Below are positions 1,351 to 49,325 of a stretch of DNA of 64,000 bases, one piece after another. This DNA comes from Stegostoma tigrinum (lineage: Eukaryota): NCBI RefSeq assembly GCF_030684315.1, contig NC_081382.1:34110620-34174619 (forward strand), given 5' to 3'. Made by a program: the position numbers and the translations under genes. Each line of letters begins with the position of its first letter. The first letter of the stretch is position 1. Below the pieces are notes generated by a model, which saw only the letters and a program-made list of their open reading frames with translations, had not been told where the DNA came from and searched no databases.

Positions 1351-1365
1351 CTGTGTATGAAAGTA
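1351..1365 (+). repeat. Left target-site duplication of the PLE palindrome (ctgtgtatgaaagta)
   Basis: Identical 15-mer at 4239-4253 directly after the right arm. Confidence 0.88.
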
Positions 1366-2842
1366 ATAAAATGTGAGGCTGGATGAACACAGCAGGCCAA
1401 GCAGCATCTCAGGAGCACAAAAGCTGACGTTTCGGGCCTAGACCCTTCATCAGAGAGGGGGATGGGGAGAGGGAACTGGAATAAATAGGGAGAGAGGGGG
1501 AGGCGGACCGAAGATGGAGAGTAAAGAAGATAGGTGGAGAGAGTATAGGTGGGGAGGTAGGGAAGGGATAGGTCAGTCCAGGGAAGGCGGACAGGTCAAG
1601 GAGGTGGGATGAGGTTAGTAGGTAGCTGGGGTTGCGGCTTGGGGTGGGAGGAAGGGATGAGTGAGAGGAAGAACCGGTTAGGGAGGCAGAGACAGGTTGG
1701 ACTGGTTTTGGGATGCAGTGGGTGGAGGTGAAGAGCTGGGCTGGTTGTGTGGTGCAGTGGGGGGAGGGGACGAACTGGGCTGGTTTAGGGATGCGGTGGG
1801 GGAAGGGGAGATTTTGAAACTGGTGAAGTCCACATTGATACCATTAGGCTGCAGGGTTCCTAGGCGGAATATGAGTTGCTGTTCCTGCAACCTTCGGGTG
1901 GCATCATTGTGGCACTGCAGGAGGCCCATGATGGACATGTCATCTAGAGAATGGGAGGGGGAGTGGAAATGTTTTGCGACTGGGAGGTGCAGTTGTTTGT
2001 TGCGAACTGAGCGGAGGTGTTCTGCAAAGCGGTCCCCAAGCCTCCGCTTGGTTTCCCCAATATAGAGGGAGCCGCACCGGGTACAGTGGATGCAGTATAC
2101 CACATTGGCAGATGTGCAGGTGAACCTCTGCTTAATGTGGAATGTCATCTTGGGGCCTGGGATGGGGGTGAGGGAGGAGGTGTGGGGACAGCTGTAGCAT
2201 TTCCTGCGGTTGCAGGGGAAGGTGCCAGGTGTGGTGGGGTTGGAGGGCAGTGTGGAGCGAACAAGGGAGTCAGGGAGAGGGTGGTCTCTCCGGAAAGCTG
2301 ACAGGGGAGGGGATGGAAAAATGTCTTGGGTGGTGGGGTCGGATTGTAAATGGCGGAAGTGTCAGAGGATAATGCGTTGTATCCGGAGGTTGGTAGGGTG
2401 GTGTGTGAGAACGAGGGGGATCCTCTTGGGGCGGTTGTGGCGGGGGCGGGGTGTGAGGGATGTGTTGCGGGAAATATGGGAGACGCGGTCAAGGGCGTTC
2501 TCGATCACTGTGGGGGGAAAGTCGCGGTCCTTGAAGAACTTGGACATCTGGGATGTGCGGGAGTGGAATGTCTTATCGTGGGAGCAGATGCGGCGGAGGC
2601 GGAGGAATTGGGAATAGGGGATGGAATTTTTGCAGGAGGGTGGGTGGGAGGAGGTGTATTGGAATTTTTGCAGGAGGGTGGGTGGGAGGAGGTGTATTGG
2701 AATTTTTGCAGGAGGGTGGGTGGGAGGAGGTGTATTGGAATTTTTGCAGGAGGGTGGGTGGGAGGAGGTGTATTGGAATTTTTGCAGGAGGGTGGGTGGG
2801 AGGAGGTGTATTGGAATTTTTGCAGGAGGGTGGGTGGGTGTA
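1366..2842 (-). mobile_element. Penelope-like element (Neptune type), 5'-truncated; left arm of palindrome
   Basis: The minus strand encodes the RT thumb (YTSSHPPSCKNSIPYSQFLRLRRICS), a Cys-rich linker and a GIY-YIG endonuclease (NVVYCIHCTRCGSLYIGETKRRLGDRFAEH). One CGA>TGA stop near 2362. Pyrimidine-rich 3' UTR. Confidence 0.92.
1426..1453 (-). ncRNA. Minimal hammerhead-ribozyme-like motif in PLE 3' end
   Basis: Minus strand CUGAUGA-A-GGGUCUAGGCCC-GAAA-CGUC: conserved CUGANGA and GAAA boxes, stem II, GUC triplet. Confidence 0.6.
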
Positions 2843-2916
2843 TACACCTCCTCCCACCCACCCTCCTGCAAAAATTCCAATACACCTCCTCCCACCCACC
2901 CTCCTGCAAAAATTCC
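2623..2916. repeat. 38-bp G-rich tandem array at palindrome apex
   Basis: Unit ggaatttttgcaggagggtgggtgggaggaggtgtatt starts at 2623, 2661, 2699, 2737 and 2775, with a partial copy at 2813. Two inverted copies follow at 2843-2916. Symmetry centre ggtgta|tacacc at 2842/2843. Confidence 0.95.
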
Positions 2917-4238
2917 ATCCCCTATTCCCAATTCCTCCGCCTCCGCCGCATCTGCTCCCACGATAAGACATTCCACTCCTGCACATCCCAGATGTCCAAG
3001 TTCTTTAAGGACCGCAACTTTCCCCCCACAGTGATCGAGAACGCCCTTGACCGCGTCTCCCGTATTTCCCGCAACACATCCTTCACACCCCGCCCCCGCC
3101 ACAACCGCCCCAAGAGGATCCCCCTCGTTCTCACACACCACCCTACCAACCTCCGGATACAACGCATTATCCTCCGACACTTCCGCCATTTACAATCCGA
3201 CCCCACCACCCAAGACATTTTTCCATCCCCTCCCCTGTCAGCTTTCCGGAGAGACCACCCTCTCCGTGACTCCCTTGTTCGCTCCACACTGCCCTCCAAC
3301 CCCACCACACCCGGCACCTTCCCCTGCAACCGCAGGAAATGCTACAGCTGTCCCCACACCTCCTCCCTCACCCCCATCCCAGGCCCCAAGATGACATTCC
3401 ACATTAAGCAGAGGTTCACCTGCACATCTGCCAATGTGGTATACTGCATCCACTGTACCCGGTGTGGCTTCCTCTACATTGGGGAAACCAAGCGGAGGCT
3501 TGGGGACCGCTTTGCAGAACACCTCCGCTCAGTTTGCAACAAACAACTGCACCTCCCAGTCGCAAACCATTTCCACTCCCCCTCCCATTCTCTAGATGAC
3601 ATGTCCATCATGGGCCTCCTGCAGTGCCACAATGATGCCACCCGAAGGTTGCAGGAACAGCGACTCATATTCCGCCTGGGAACCCTGCAGCCATATGGTA
3701 TCAATGTGGACTTCACCAGTTTCAAAATCTCCCCTTCCCCTACTGCATCCCTAAACCATCCCAGTTCGTCCCCTCCCCCCACAGCACCACACAACCAGCC
3801 CAGCTCTCCCCTCTCCCCCCCCCCCCCCCCCCCCCCACCCACTGCATCCCAAAACCAGTCCAACCTGTCTCTGCCTCCCTAACCGGTTCTTCCTCTCACC
3901 CATCCCTTCCTCCCACCTCATGCCGCACCTCCATTTCCTACCTACCACCTCATCCCACCTCCTTGACCTGTCCATCTTCCCTGGACTGACCTATCCCCTC
4001 CCTACCTCCCCACCTATACTCTCCTCTCTACCTATCTTGTTTTCTCTCCATCTTCGGTCCGCCTCCCCCTCTCTCCCTATTTATTCCAGTTCCCTCTCCC
4101 CCATCCCCCTCTCTGATGAAGGGTCTAGGCCCGAAACGTCAGCTTTTGTGCTCCTGAGATGCTGCTGGGGCTGCTGTGTTCATCCAGCCTCACATTTTAT
4201 ATCTTGGAATTCTCCAGCATCTGCAGTTCCTATTATCT
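2843..4238 (+). mobile_element. Penelope-like element (Neptune type), 5'-truncated; right arm of palindrome
   Basis: Open frame to the stop at 3882: RT thumb, CNRRKCYSCPH linker, GIY-YIG (VVYCIHCTRCGFLYIGETKRRL). Complete 3' end ...ctccagcatctgcagttcctattatct. Confidence 0.93.
4113..4140 (+). ncRNA. Minimal hammerhead-ribozyme-like motif
   Basis: ctgatga-a-gggtctaggccc-gaaa-cgtc. PLE pseudo-LTRs are known to carry minimal type I hammerheads. Confidence 0.62.
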
Positions 4239-6562
4239 CTGTGTATGAAAGTATACATGGCACATTCATTCCTCCATGCTATTATTGAAACCTTGAAAAT
4301 TGAGAAAAGTGAGACTGTTTTTAGACCCACTGGTGCTTATGATCTATCTGAATTGGTATACAGTTAAGGAGTTAAGATGAACCAGGTTCTTGAGTTGGAC
4401 ATTTTCTTTGAAACACTGATTAGCGAGTTGTATATATTTTGTTTGGTTGAATTGCTGTTTATTTGCGAATCTGAAATGTATGTCTACAAAATATTGACAA
4501 TATAGTCAGCAAAACCTAGAAACGATGCTTAAAAACTTTTACCTTAATAACCCTCACTGTAATGCAATTGTCATGATTTGGGTCACCAAAGGGTCTTTAA
4601 AAGTTTAGACTTAGCTGCTGACGTACAAAAGTTTAAAAAGGTCCTGCTTCCTGATGATTCAAAGGAAGTTTAGGAAGAAGCTTGGCTCCAAAATACTGAG
4701 CTGAGACTTGATCGGATTGTAATGAAAATAAACTTCTAATTGTATCCAAGAATAAATAGTCTGTTAGTCACTGAATGCAGTCGTGTTAATATGTCTGCAC
4801 ATGGATATGCAGCGCTACGAATGCCATCTCAAGACTTGTTTTATGAGACTAAGTTTTGACTTTTTGATACCATTTTAAGAATAAATAAGATTTCAATGTA
4901 GTGTCATTACGTAACAGCCACAGGGTAGTTAATTTTATTAAATTTATTAGATAATGACTAGTGCTTTATTTTTCTTCTGTGTGCTTGTACACATGTAGCT
5001 TTACAGCTTTTTTTTTGAAACACACACACACACCCGTCACTTGTTTAGCACTCCCAATGTGTTCCTAAAAATTGATGTGCTAAACCGTAACATGCGAATT
5101 GAAAGTCACTTTCCCATAGGGTATGATGTAATATGCATTATGTTCCTGACAGCGACTAGTTAGGTCAATCAGCTAGATGCTTAGCATGTGGTTCAGAATT
5201 ATATGTGGGCTCAATTCCGATTCTGGCTGAGATAAGCCTTGTTATCTTGCTTCTTGCTCTCTTGATAGTTAAAGGCAAAAACTGCTCAACATAAAACGTT
5301 GACAATGAGCTAAAGACTTGCCTTTGGGTAGAGAGCACAAAAATGAATTAATGTTCCTGACATTCAGTTACTTTTGTGGTTTAAAACCTGCATGAAGTTA
5401 ACAGTCTCAAAATGCCTTTCAACATTTTACTTCTATGAACTTACTACTCTTACTAACTTAGCTGTTGTTTGCCATTCCCCTCCCCTCCCCCAAACCCCCA
5501 CTTTGTCCTGCTCCCTGTCTCCCACACTAAGTTGCTCCTTCCTGCTTTCTGCGCTTTTTCCTTTCAGTTGCTGCTTCCTTGTCACTCCATTCTCTACTTC
5601 CTATCCATTTTCATTACCATCAATTCCATTCCCCCTCCTGATCCTTCTTTGCCCTGCATATTGCTTGTCCCCTCCCTCCTGTTCACATCCATTCTCTCCT
5701 GATCTCCTCACTTCTTTCTTCTTGCTGCTACTCTCCCATGCCCTCACTTATTACCTCTGTCAAGATTCGCCTACTAGCTATGCGTCAGTGGGAGTGCAGG
5801 AGGCCAGGAGAGAAAAAATTAAGGTCAAATTTTATTAAATTATGATGCTAAATCATATTAATGACTAATACAAATATAAATCAAGTACCGGAAACACAGA
5901 ACAGAATATTCTGAAAATGCACACCTACTTCTTTAGAGATAAATCAATATTATTCCAGCTAATCCTTGAACCATATTTCTTGTGTCTCTTCCGGACTGTC
6001 CCTCCCCACTCCTGACTTTGTGTCTCTTTCTTGTGTTTACGCCCTCACTTTTTTTTCCTCTCTTTCTGTCTCTGGTTCTCTTATACTTTCTCTGCCTTTC
6101 AGTTTGAGAGATTAATTGACAGAATTTGGAAAATGCAGAGGCTTATAATTGATATACATATGGATATTTGGAATGTTTTACATAAAAGAAGTTGCAAAGT
6201 TAAATGTGCGCATACACCAGTGACATTTATTTGCTAGACACTGTCTTTTAATAATGCTGTTGTAAAAATAACTGGAAATAATTTGTTTAGTTAGACATAG
6301 GCAAGAAGTTTACTTTAAAATGATTTTATTAGAATTAAGAATCAATAAAAATGACCTCCAAGGTTATTATGGCTGTGTATTCTATCAAGGCATGCTAAGG
6401 TAACTAATCTAAATGTTACTCCATGTATTTGTGAAATAAGCTCTTCCATTATTCATAATTGCATCAGTTTGAAAAGTTTAATGCAAAGCTCAGATCAGTA
6501 AACGGTTGTCATGAGACTGTGTTTTAAAATTACGTGCATTGTTAAAGCTGTTTGTTTTGCAG

Positions 6563-7470: not shown

Positions 7471-8364
7471 TGCTCCACACTGCCCTCCAACCCCACCACA
7501 CCCGGCACCTTCCCCTGCAACCGCAGGAAATGCTACACTTGCCCCTACACCTCCTCCCTCACCCCTATCCCAGCCCCAAGATGACATTCCACATTAAGCA
7601 GAGGTTCACCTGCATATCTGCCAATGTGGTATACTGCATCCACTGTACCCGGTGTGGCTCCCTCTACATTGGGGAAACCAAGCGGAGGCTTGGGGACCGC
7701 TTTGCAGAGCACCTCCGCTCAGTTCGCAACAAACAACTGCACCTCCCAGTCGCAAACCATTTCCACTCCCCCTCCAATTCTTTAGATGACATGTCCATCA
7801 TGGGCCGCCTGCAGTGCCACAATGATACCACCAGAAGGTTGCAGGAACAGCAACTCGTATTCCGCCTGGGAACCCTGCAGCCTAATGGTATCGATGTGGA
7901 CTTCACCAGTTTCAAAATCTCCCCTTCCCCAACCGCATCCCTAAACCAGCCCAGTTCGTCCCCTCCCCCCACTGCACCACACAACCAGCCCAGCTCTTCC
8001 CCTCCACCCACTGCATCCCAAAACCAGTCCAACCTGTCTCTGCCTCCCTAACCTGTTCTTCCTCTCACCCATCCCTTCCTCCCACCCCAAGCCGCACCCC
8101 CATCTACCTACTAACCTCATCCCACCTCCTTGACCTGTCCGTCTTCCCTGGACTGACCTATCCCTCCCTACCTTCCCACCTATACTCTCCTCTCTACCTA
8201 TCTTCTTTTCTCCATCTTCGGTCCGCCTCCCCCTCTCTCCCTATTTATTCCAGAACCCTCTCCTCAACCCCCTCTCTGATGAAGGGTCTAGGCCCGAAAC
8301 ATCAGCTTTTGTGCTCCTGAGATGCTGCTTGGCCTGCTGTGTTCGTCCAGCCTCACATTTTATA
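7471..8364 (+). mobile_element. Penelope-like element 3' fragment (GIY-YIG + 3' UTR)
   Basis: Near-identical to the palindrome arms (ORF 7530..8051). Hammerhead-like motif at 8276-8303 (AUC variant). Inserted into an older SINE-like repeat with the short direct repeat aatcagc on both sides. Confidence 0.9.
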
Positions 8365-8439
8365 ATCAGCATTGTTTACCTGGTCACCGTTAGGCTAGCT
8401 TTTAATTCTAGATTTTTATTGACTTCAAAACTTCAACTT

Positions 8440-9792: not shown

Positions 9793-10012
9793 AGATAATA
9801 AAATGTGAGGCTGGATGAACACAGCAGGCCCAGCAACATCTCAGGAGCACAAAAGCTGACGTTTCGGGCCTAGACCCTTCATCAGATAATGAAGGGTCTA
9901 GGCCCGAAACGTCAGCTTTTGTGCTCCTGAGATGCTGCTGGGCCTGCTGTGTTCATCCAGCCTCACGTTTTATTATCTTGGATTCTCCAGCATCTGCAGT
10001 TCCCATTATCAC
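9793..10012. mobile_element. Miniature hairpin PLE insertion
   Basis: Inverted 3'-end copy 9793-9885 and direct copy 9889-10012. 15-bp TSD tgattccaaaatctg at 9778-9792 and 10013-10027. Confidence 0.9.
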
Positions 10013-14122: not shown

Positions 14123-14340
14123 ACCATTAGAAAGAACTATTCTTCTCTGATCAAATATTTAACCTTGCTATTTGACTTAGAGATGTTTAACAATTCTATT
14201 TAGCTTGAAATTCTTTATTTGAAGCATTACATACCTTTTAATGAGGAAAAAGAAGTTGTTTTACAATCTAATTTTCTCCTTTTAACTTTTAGTTTTTAAC
14301 AGATTTTCTCACCATTAATACAGACAGTATTGAAAGGGAT

Positions 14341-14522
14341 AACACGGTGTGAAGCTGCATGAACACAGGCCAAGCAGCATCAGAAGAGCAGGAAAGTTTG
14401 ATGTTTCGAGTTGTCAAGCTTTCCTGCTCCTCTGATGCTGCTTGGCCTGCTGTGTTCATCCAGCTTCACACCATGTTATCTCAGATTCTCCAGCATCGGC
14501 AGTTCCTACTACCTCTCCAAGT
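14341..14522. mobile_element. Miniature hairpin PLE insertion (older subfamily)
   Basis: Inverted repeat of the gctgcttggcctgctgtgttcatccagcttcacacc end. 14-bp TSD gtattgaaagggat at 14327-14340 and 14523-14536. Confidence 0.82.
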
Positions 14523-29745: not shown

Positions 29746-29960
29746 AAAACCGAAAGAACTGTGGATGCTGTAAATGCATGAACAAAAACAAAGTTGCTGG
29801 AAAAGCTCAGCAAGTCTGGCAGCATCTGTGAAGGAAAAAAACAGAGTTAACGTTTCGGGTCCGGTGACCCTTCCTCAGATCCAAAACATTAACTCTGTTT
29901 TTTTCTTTCACAGATGCTGCCAGACCTGCTGAGCTTTTCCAGCAACTTTGTTTTTGTTCA
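29746..29960. mobile_element. Miniature hairpin insertion, second PLE family
   Basis: aacaaaaacaaagttgctggaaaagctcagcaagtctggcagcatctgtgaag is inverted as ttcacagatgctgccagacctgctgagcttttccagcaactttgtttttgtt. The minus strand carries CUGAGGA-A-GGGUC-ACCG-GACCC-GAAA-CGUU (29846-29878). Confidence 0.78.
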
Positions 29961-30552
29961 TGCAATTATATAGAAATTTCCAAAACTTACTGTATGAGTT
30001 AAAGTACTTCACGTTTTGAGAGTAAAATGAGTACTTCTAATTCTCAACGATGGCTTCTGCCACGATGGTAACTGTGCTAAACTTCACTTGGTATCACTCA
30101 GAAACTCCACTGGCAGGGCACTTCCCACCCAGAGCAGTACAATGGGCTGGGAAATAACATGATTTGATGTCCTTTGTTTTCTCTAAGTCACTTTTCGGCC
30201 TTCTCTTTTGTTTCTTCTGTACTGTTCTGATGCCTTTTCAGTCCGCCTCCAGAAGTTATGACCATAAATTACACTTTCCCAGTTGTCAGTGTTATTGTCT
30301 GTTATCTTCATATCTCACTTGCAAGTATCCTTGGAGTGGAGGAATAGACCCCAAAGAGGTTGTAACCCATTGACTAGATCTTTTGAAGATCTTTGTCACC
30401 TGTTTAATTAATGTGAGCAGATTTTTGCAGATGCCAGTGGCTTAGCAATGAGTCTAAGTTGATAGAATTAACATGCTGAAAGATTTCTGGTTGGTGAGCT
30501 TTCTCTTGAAAGTGATGCTGAATATACATCCAAGACAGCAAAGGTAGAAACT

Positions 30553-43210: not shown

Positions 43211-43421
43211 GTAAGTCAGTGTTCTGCAGTGCAACAATATTATTGGTTTACTCAAGAGTTTTAACAATATCAACTCTTTACCATCTGAAATCTCACTGTT
43301 TGCTGATTTTTCTATATCTTAAATTTTTACTCATGATGTCATACTTTTTAAATTACGTAATGTAATATTTATAAAATTGGTTAAGGGAAAGCTTGGCATA
43401 AGAGTTTTCAAAAACAGGAAT

Positions 43422-43640
43422 GGAACAAAATCAGAAATTGTTGGGAAAAACTCAGCAGGGTAGGCAGCATTTGTGGAGAGAAAGCAGTGTTAATGTTTCA
43501 TGCTCAGTGACCCTTTTTCAGAATGGTTCTGAAACGTTAACTCTGCTTTCTCTCCACAGATGCTGCTTGATCTGATTAGTTTTTTCAGCAACTTCTGATT
43601 TTGTTTCCGATTTCCAGCATCTGCAGTTCTTTGAGATTCT
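43422..43640. mobile_element. Miniature hairpin insertion (second PLE family), decayed
   Basis: aacaaaatcagaaattgttg...ggcagcatttgtggagagaaagcag is inverted as ctgctttctctccacagatgctgc...caacttctgattttgtt, followed by a tail. Confidence 0.7.
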
Positions 43641-48349: not shown

Positions 48350-49325
48350 CTAACCATAATCACCAGGCATATTAGCCAAGGCTTAGAGTTGAAGAGCAGG
48401 GAAGTATGTTGGAACTGTATAAAATGTTGGTTAGGCCACAGCAAGAGTATTATGTGCTGTTCTGAAATCCACATTATAGGAGGGATGTGATTGTATTAGA
48501 GATGGCGCAGAGGAGATTTACTAGGATATTGCATGGACTAGAGAGTTCTGATTATGATGAGCGATTGGATAAACTGGGGTTGATTTCCTTGGAGCAGTGG
48601 AGACTGAGTGGGCACATGATTGAAGTGTATAAAATTATGAGGATCATAGATAAGTTTGATAGGAAATTTTTCCCCTTTTGAATGCTCAGTGACCGGGGTG
48701 CATATATTTAAGTTAATTTAGTTTAATGTTACATGTATCTGAGTACAGTGGGAAGTTTTGTTTTGCGAGCAGTACAGATATATAACAACATTCAAGGATC
48801 ATAGGTGTTTGGACCAAGTAAGTTATGCTTTGGCATCGCAAGTACCCATCTAAATACTTCTTAAATGTTGAGGGTTTCTGCCTCTACCACCCTTGCAGGC
48901 AGTAAATTCTAGATTCCAACCACCTCTGGAAGATTATGGCTGCATTGGAGGTGCACAAAAGCAAGATCAACATGAGATTTGAAATTGGATCAGCCCATTC
49001 AGGAGTCTAATAACAGCAGGGAAGAAGCTATTCTTGAACCTGTTGGTACACGAGTTCAAGCTTCTGTATCTTCTATCTGAGACAATGTGAAGAAAAGAAT
49101 TCTCATCCAGAGGTGGTTGGAATCTAGAATTTACTGCCTGCGAGGGTGGTAGAGGCAGAAACCCTCAACATTTAAGAAGTATTTAGATGGGGACTTGTGA
49201 TGCCAAAGCATTCAAGGCTATGGCCAAGTGCTGTAAAATAGAAGTCGAATAGGTAGGTGCAGTTTTTAACTGGCGCAGACATGATGGGCTGAAGGGTTTC
49301 TTCCTGTCTGTAGATCTCTGTCTCC
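48350..49325 (+). mobile_element. CR1 3' part interrupted by a Rex1-like fragment (~48713-49082, - strand)
   Basis: LEMAQRRFTRILHGLESSDYDERLDKLGLISLEQWRLSGHMIEVYKIM. The insert resembles 36830-37430. Confidence 0.72.
48825..49211. repeat. 106-bp inverted duplication (48825-48930 / 49106-49211)
   Basis: Arms differ at only 3 positions by eye; 175-bp spacer. Confidence 0.9.

Follow-up and report, generated by a model that had tools for sequence, protein, structure and literature searches.

A head-to-head Penelope-like insertion in Stegostoma tigrinum and the stop-and-stutter site at its centre

How does a retroelement come to lie in a genome as two inverted copies of itself, joined head to head and cut short at the same point? 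The question is raised by a unit near the start of a 64,000-nucleotide stretch of contig NC_081382.1 of Stegostoma tigrinum; this whole stretch is the window, and coordinates are positions in it. The unit consists of two 5'-truncated copies of a Penelope-like element (PLE), enclosed by one target-site duplication (TSD). A sequence-only reading had found the persistence of this palindrome notable. The locus does not stand alone, since 17 other TSD-bounded palindromes, 2.5-2.7 kb long, share its centre in the genome: the insertion is genuine and of an ordinary kind, and at least 18 loci, this one included, have the same centre. The palindrome by itself is a known form of PLE insertion, and the point added here is the stop-and-stutter site. 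In the best reading of the copies, which we regard as rather probable, the arms would arise by twin priming, both cDNAs stalling at one hotspot and the reverse transcriptase (RT) copying 38 nt several times over before the ends were joined.

The whole unit is a single insertion event, as had been supposed from the sequence. The 15-bp direct repeat described as bounding it is indeed present at 1351-1365 and 4239-4253. Looking for an empty site in related species had been proposed, and the single 15-mer is found in one of them: a contig of that species (run X1) aligns from 4239 onward (722 nt of flank, with 44 letters different and 7 gaps), and its loose end before 4239 agrees with the left flank (1321-1350) in 27 of 30 letters. 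This is an empty site, with the 15-mer present once; the left-flank contig of run X1 ends at 1315 and is uninformative on the insertion site. Finally, contigs from two samples of the species itself cross from flank to element at both ends (679-1387 and 4217-4960), reaching 22 letters into the element, where the bridging rule of the tool is 31 letters.

The stop-and-stutter site

The centre of the unit is not the clean mirror that had been reported. The arms are inverted and their joint at 2842/2843 is self-complementary, but the symmetry is perfect over 6+6 nt only. Where the arms had been described as reverse complements around the centre, the left one carries about 5.7 copies of a 38-nt unit and the right one two, which leaves about 144 nt unpaired. 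This unit is the 5'-most native stretch of the truncated element; the array had been overlooked, as had the foreign-subfamily tract discussed below.

Two patterns were counted at this site, each against two control sites. Near-symmetric centres, defined as mirrored ends within 30 nt at the site, are found at 24 loci, against 9 and 6 at two downstream sites reached by more copies (p=0.0003). Eighteen of the 24 are TSD-bounded pairs of 2.5-2.9 kb, 17 of them with a one-sided tail, and several of the 18 show 0-6 arm-to-arm differences. Seams of re-copying number 65 at 40 loci, against 11 at 10 loci and 16 at 13 loci for the controls (p=1e-6), the units at the 40 loci being 26-39 nt long. Stutter is present at the control sites too, three to four times more rarely. 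Judged by the copies that it has left, the site is a stop-and-stutter hotspot, its centre and its stutter recurring elsewhere in the genome.

When did the repeats form? The array ends the arm, at its 5' end, in all 14 of the other loci fetched, out of 39, yet 34 of the 37 copies that reach the site continue past it: the repeats therefore formed during insertion, and not by later slippage. Points of departure are spread over about 15 nt among the re-copy loci, and re-entry, judged by eye, keeps to one point to within two T at about 36 of the 40, the studied locus being among the exceptions, with re-entry 8 nt further back. Different seams are mixed within three arrays, a sign that copying went on in separate rounds, and homology at most seams is 0-1 nt. 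A young age of the studied array, read from the perfect identity of its units, was considered and rejected: only about 2 changes are expected over 290 nt, by our estimate, so that finding none is uninformative. Two further arrays may be recorded here: L137 (G000:C2:100445218-100448249) has at least six re-copies of 68 nt, which also end at this site, and G000:C22:48887093 has 8 seams of a 29-nt unit.

It is conceivable, though unlikely, that the arms were made by twin priming and that the array and the joint are scars of host end-joining, polymerase theta repeatedly extending, releasing and re-annealing the cDNA end. This polymerase makes iterative templated insertions primed by minimal pairing (PMC12426944), and most arm joints in the family overlap by 0-4 nt, often with short mirrored bits. 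Its insertions are, however, generally shorter than 25 bp and patchwork (PMC12426944), whereas the units here are longer, up to the 68 nt of L137, and lie head to tail, with as many as 8 seams and a nearly fixed point of re-entry, often without native homology.

Two arms and one tail

The 98 loci fetched around family copies yielded 65 candidate head-to-head pairs. Tails were counted in 43 of these, with a TSD and both arms of at least 250 nt, and in 10 pairs added later: in 53 of 53 such pairs, exactly one arm bears the tail. Head-to-head arms with a one-sided tail are the norm for the family in this genome. An inverted truncated copy, a tail and a TSD have been described for PLEs (PMC3846280; PMC8557442), and how PLEs make inverted structures is called undefined (PMC8557442).

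The sequence-only reading had left a choice between fold-back and twin priming, and the lengths of the arms speak for the second. If a tailed cDNA folds back, the tail-less arm cannot reach further 5', and if a tail-less cDNA folds back, there can be no tail. Among 41 unselected pairs, 31 have a tail-less arm that extends beyond the tailed one on the 5' side (p=0.0015), where whole-arm fold-back would never make it longer at that end; priming from both nicks is thus favoured, by a test at the level of the family that is not decisive for the locus.

Assuming that this holds for the studied unit, its history might read as follows. Reverse transcription would be primed from both nicks of a 15-nt staggered cut, and the two cDNAs would begin at separate RNA start sites, 38 nt from each other, so that one arm has the tail and the other lacks it, both being copied from the same source RNA species. 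Some 1.3 kb in, just past a G-rich stretch of cDNA, synthesis would stop 2-3 times more often than average, and the equal truncation of the arms is likely due to this stalling hotspot. After a stop, copying would resume from an almost constant earlier position, with scarcely any homology or none. One cDNA end would then snap back over a few bases, a step that is likely at the joint of this locus, and anneal to the other end by 2 nt. Later, ectopic gene conversion from a nearby copy would overwrite 126-300 nt of the right arm.

Some observations weigh against this history, and the first concerns the seam. It has six exact matches in the genome, and all six are at this locus, in both arms: two stutters independent of each other would not readily leave one and the same locus-unique seam in both arms, which suggests that copying ran across the centre. 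The two arms also share a rare allele, at 3347-3348, that occurs at just two other places and speaks for the history above as well as for fold-back. A single tailed cDNA that folded over at the centre, its whole length then being copied except for the last 38 nt, would explain the shared seam and allele, the zero-spacer joint and the equal truncation; one internal deletion is present in both arms of palindrome L176, and snap-back of cDNA at 5' junctions is known for R2 (PMC11204384). We nevertheless consider whole-arm fold-back very unlikely: it cannot produce the pairs whose tail-less arm is the longer, it would require additional slips to get from 2 units to 5.7, and the hotspot already accounts for the equal truncation. 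The identical seam and the longer tail-less arms would both fit a source RNA that already carried the 38-nt array, transcribed from a truncated parent, the cDNAs having stopped after 5.7 and 2 units. But the assembly holds no parent with the studied seam, and the origin of the array is merely shifted one step back, which makes this explanation highly improbable.

The other points against twin priming with stutter at one hotspot are these. Four pairs with the tail on both arms or on neither (L036, L050, L091 and L120) have no good TSD and were left out of the 53, and L167 has a TSD and no tail. In the unselected sample, 5 of 65 ends lie within 30 nt of the site, where about 2.5 are expected, which alone is not significant. 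The re-copy pattern detects units of 25-39 nt only, and each test had two control sites, no more. G4Hunter ranks the site mid-list (1.6) and a G-richer site has only 13 stutter loci, so that a G-quadruplex is unsupported as a sufficient cause; the RNA upstream of the site is not unusually structured, and RNA structure is unsupported as a block. Evidence from reads spans only the flanks and both junctions, and the assembly is one base short at 4272 and one at 4290 relative to all three runs, the related species included. These last points, with the identity of all array units, are also what would favour a long-read or assembly artefact as the source of the array or of the whole mirror. Such an artefact is hardly credible, given the TSD, the empty site and both junctions in short-read contigs, the private changes on each of the diverged arms, and the arrays found at 5' ends with and without a mirror, with varied seams.

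The arms differ in a second way. Of 75 diagnostic sites, 23 are discordant between them, the highest count among the 53 pairs, which suggested two RNA templates of different subfamilies. This origin is rejected for the studied locus, since the foreign tract lies inside the arm and the tail matches the arm's native subfamily: the right arm has its own subfamily's alleles up to 3885 and from 4189, and those of another at 3918-4043. The best donor is a solitary copy on this contig, at a distance of 238 kb; it is the top non-self match genome-wide and differs from the tract in 4 of 287 columns, against 22 for the left arm and 10 or more for other copies. As far as the alleles tell, the tract is probably a later ectopic gene conversion from that copy. 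Within the left arm, a shorter stretch that corresponds to 3693-3744 also has variant alleles common to other copies. Decay at CpG sites, which had been emphasised, covers only 10 of the 37 substitutions as CpG transitions, and 13 of the 37 fall within 3886-4100, which holds the foreign tract.

Does symmetry decay with age? The five pairs with at most 4 unpaired central bases differ by 0-0.46% between arms, and the 25 others by a median of 2.5%. That perfect centres occur only in young copies is a hint at most, since the measure would increase with age in any case, conversion between the arms would look alike, and one old pair, L165, is near-symmetric. The persistence of the studied palindrome, remarked upon earlier, is not as surprising as had been said, given the unpaired stretch at its centre and the divergence of its arms.

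Several other pairs deserve mention in their own right. L139, L144, L174, L175 and L141 are 2.6-kb palindromes with 0-3 unpaired central bases and 0-6 arm differences. The deletion of L176 (G000:C51:6531300-6534600), a same-centre palindrome, is of about 425 nt, and fits a deleted source RNA or arm-to-arm copying. The joints of L136, L142 and L146 contain element pieces from non-adjacent positions, that is, forward template jumps before the arm ends. L086 (G000:C27:8999000-9005000), a TSD-bounded pair with arms 10% different and 13 of 33 diagnostic sites discordant, is a candidate for two RNA templates or conversion.

The element and its parts

The arms, of 1477 nt (left) and 1396 nt (right), align over about 1330 columns, 1292 matched and 37 mismatched, a divergence of 2.9%; blastn gives 95.1% over 1360 nt. 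The alignment agrees with the sequence-only reading that the left arm lacks the last 38 nt or so of the right: the tail is right-only. The C-rich insertion of the right arm has no counterpart in the left. Table 1 collects the features.

Table 1. Features of the insertion unit, in coordinates of the window.
Feature	Position	Strand	Remark
Left copy of 15-bp target-site duplication	1351..1365	+	Single copy at the empty site of the related species
Left arm, 5'-truncated PLE copy (RT thumb, Cys linker, GIY-YIG region, 3' end), tail-less, one in-frame stop	1366..2659	-	
Hammerhead-like motif, left arm	1426..1453	-	By eye, from its core letters; no hammerhead match in Rfam
38-nt unit, five identical copies and a 27-nt partial; first copy native; five seams	2622..2838	-	
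Self-complementary joint, 12 bp; 2-nt overlap with the end of the left array	2837..2848	.	
38-nt unit, two copies, right arm; second native; one seam, identical to the left-arm seams	2842..2917	+	
Open 3' part of the PLE reading frame: RT thumb, linker, endonuclease	2881..3882	+	Pfam GIY-YIG E=0.003, below curated cut-off
CX4CXXC motif upstream of GIY-YIG (Neptune/Nematis-type linker)	3325..3351	+	Definition from PMC8557442
C-rich insertion, 22 nt, right arm only	about 3809..3830	+	
Tract with alleles of another subfamily	3918..4043, outer limits 3886-4188	+	Best donor 238 kb away, same contig
Hammerhead-like motif, right arm	4113..4140	+	By eye; unconfirmed by Rfam or folding
38-nt tail, right arm only	4201..4238	+	
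Right copy of 15-bp target-site duplication	4239..4253	+	

By its domains and its form of insertion, we class the element as an endonuclease-bearing (EN+) PLE. The open frame of the right arm contains thumb-like sequence, the linker and a weak GIY-YIG match; in L051, a longer sister copy, RVT_1 matches upstream in the same frame (E=1e-5, below the Pfam curated cut-off). Through weak matches, this is the single open reading frame of such elements, with the RT followed by a C-terminal GIY-YIG endonuclease, and the inverted 5'-truncated copy with a tail of 30-40 bp on one end and a TSD, equally typical of them, is present too. A CX2-5CxxC motif between RT and endonuclease defines the Neptune/Nematis linker (PMC8557442), and is absent from Penelope and Poseidon. 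Because the CX4CXXC linker is present, the element is placed as Neptune/Nematis-like and not Poseidon, though the motif does not separate Neptune from Nematis.

EN+ PLEs carry a hammerhead ribozyme motif in the terminal repeat, and at 4113-4140 letters recognised by eye may form such a core. Rfam gives no hammerhead match at E<=5, and the monomer fold of the region is not distinctive (z=-0.9). Over the centre, Rfam matches are to microRNA-hairpin models only, below the gathering score.

The window holds other related copies. A short head-to-head pair of family termini at 9793-10012 is joined near a hammerhead-like motif, with a tail on one arm and a direct repeat seen by eye; the short inverted pairs of related termini at 14338-14520, 29771-29968 and 43419-43612 are older and more diverged. 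A single tail-less family copy of 0.9 kb, at 7472-8367, is closer to the left arm (95.5%) than to the right (92.4%). The 109-nt inverted repeat at 48825-48933 and 49103-49211, 96% alike and 170 nt apart, is not made of family termini.

Known systems and significance

Pen2a_Av and other EN+ PLEs leave an inverted 5'-truncated copy, a one-sided tail of 30-40 bp and a TSD (PMC3846280; PMC8557442). The present unit is like them in its head-to-head layout, its tail on one end, the single TSD around the whole and the C-terminal GIY-YIG after the RT thumb. It is unlike Pen2a_Av in that both arms run for 1.3 kb and stop at one site, with a tandem array at the joint, and its TSD is 15 bp, compared with 8-10 bp in the rotifer (PMC3846280). 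In vitro, the protein of PAc, a Poseidon of Anolis, cuts and then extends each of the strands, and it has two start sites on the RNA, one at either boundary of the tail (PMC11167929), which speaks for priming from both nicks; these traits, and homology-independent starts, would be shared by the element studied here, but that source, in the part used, reports no stalling hotspot or re-copying, and Poseidon lacks the Neptune/Nematis-type Cys linker. Open-access literature searches, supplements excluded, found no PLE stall or stutter sites and no shark PLE palindromes; the supplements of PMC11167929 may bear on junction forms, and 10.64898/2026.07.22.740005, in the part used, does not treat palindromes.

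In that the cDNA 3' end receives additional synthesis while the 5' junction is still open, the locus also resembles R2 template jumping and snap-back (PMC11204384) and polymerase theta insertions (PMC12426944); same-sense re-copying, over and over from an almost constant internal position, is, however, undescribed for either in the parts of these papers used here.

The layout also recalls the twin priming of L1, with two nicks, two cDNAs and joining by microhomology. In L1, two target nicks prime two cDNAs, and the arms copy different parts of the RNA, giving an inversion-deletion; here both would begin from the 3' end, so that they overlap over their full length and form a palindrome.

Telomerase has a related RT fold (PMC8557442), and there too a short stretch of template is repeatedly copied into G-rich DNA, the nascent product folding into G-quadruplexes (10.1101/435545). 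Telomerase is processive and has a built-in homology region for realignment, whereas the units here vary, most seams lack an alignment region homologous to the end of the product, and a G-quadruplex cause is unsupported. Terminal arrays, mixed seams and focused re-entry might reflect successive rounds by the RT itself on one RNA stretch, though the letters do not name the enzyme. It is possible, if doubtful, that a Penelope-type RT performs a rudimentary telomerase-like repeat addition, in which it would release the G-rich cDNA end at a defined internal RNA site and re-engage a fixed template position, homology-free and repeatedly.

What would follow for the family? The bias in arm length supports priming from both nicks, and the palindrome is of value as a record of mechanism. 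The equal-centred 2.6-kb palindromes, being of different ages, form a natural series for the lifetime of perfect palindromes in a vertebrate germ line. The stop-and-stutter site offers a defined 40-nt template for asking whether a telomerase-related RT re-copies without homology, a testable question. If the telomerase-like reading is true, the same stall would yield families of equal-armed kilobase palindromes, and the 40 arrays would be fossils of a step from which telomerase translocation could have evolved.

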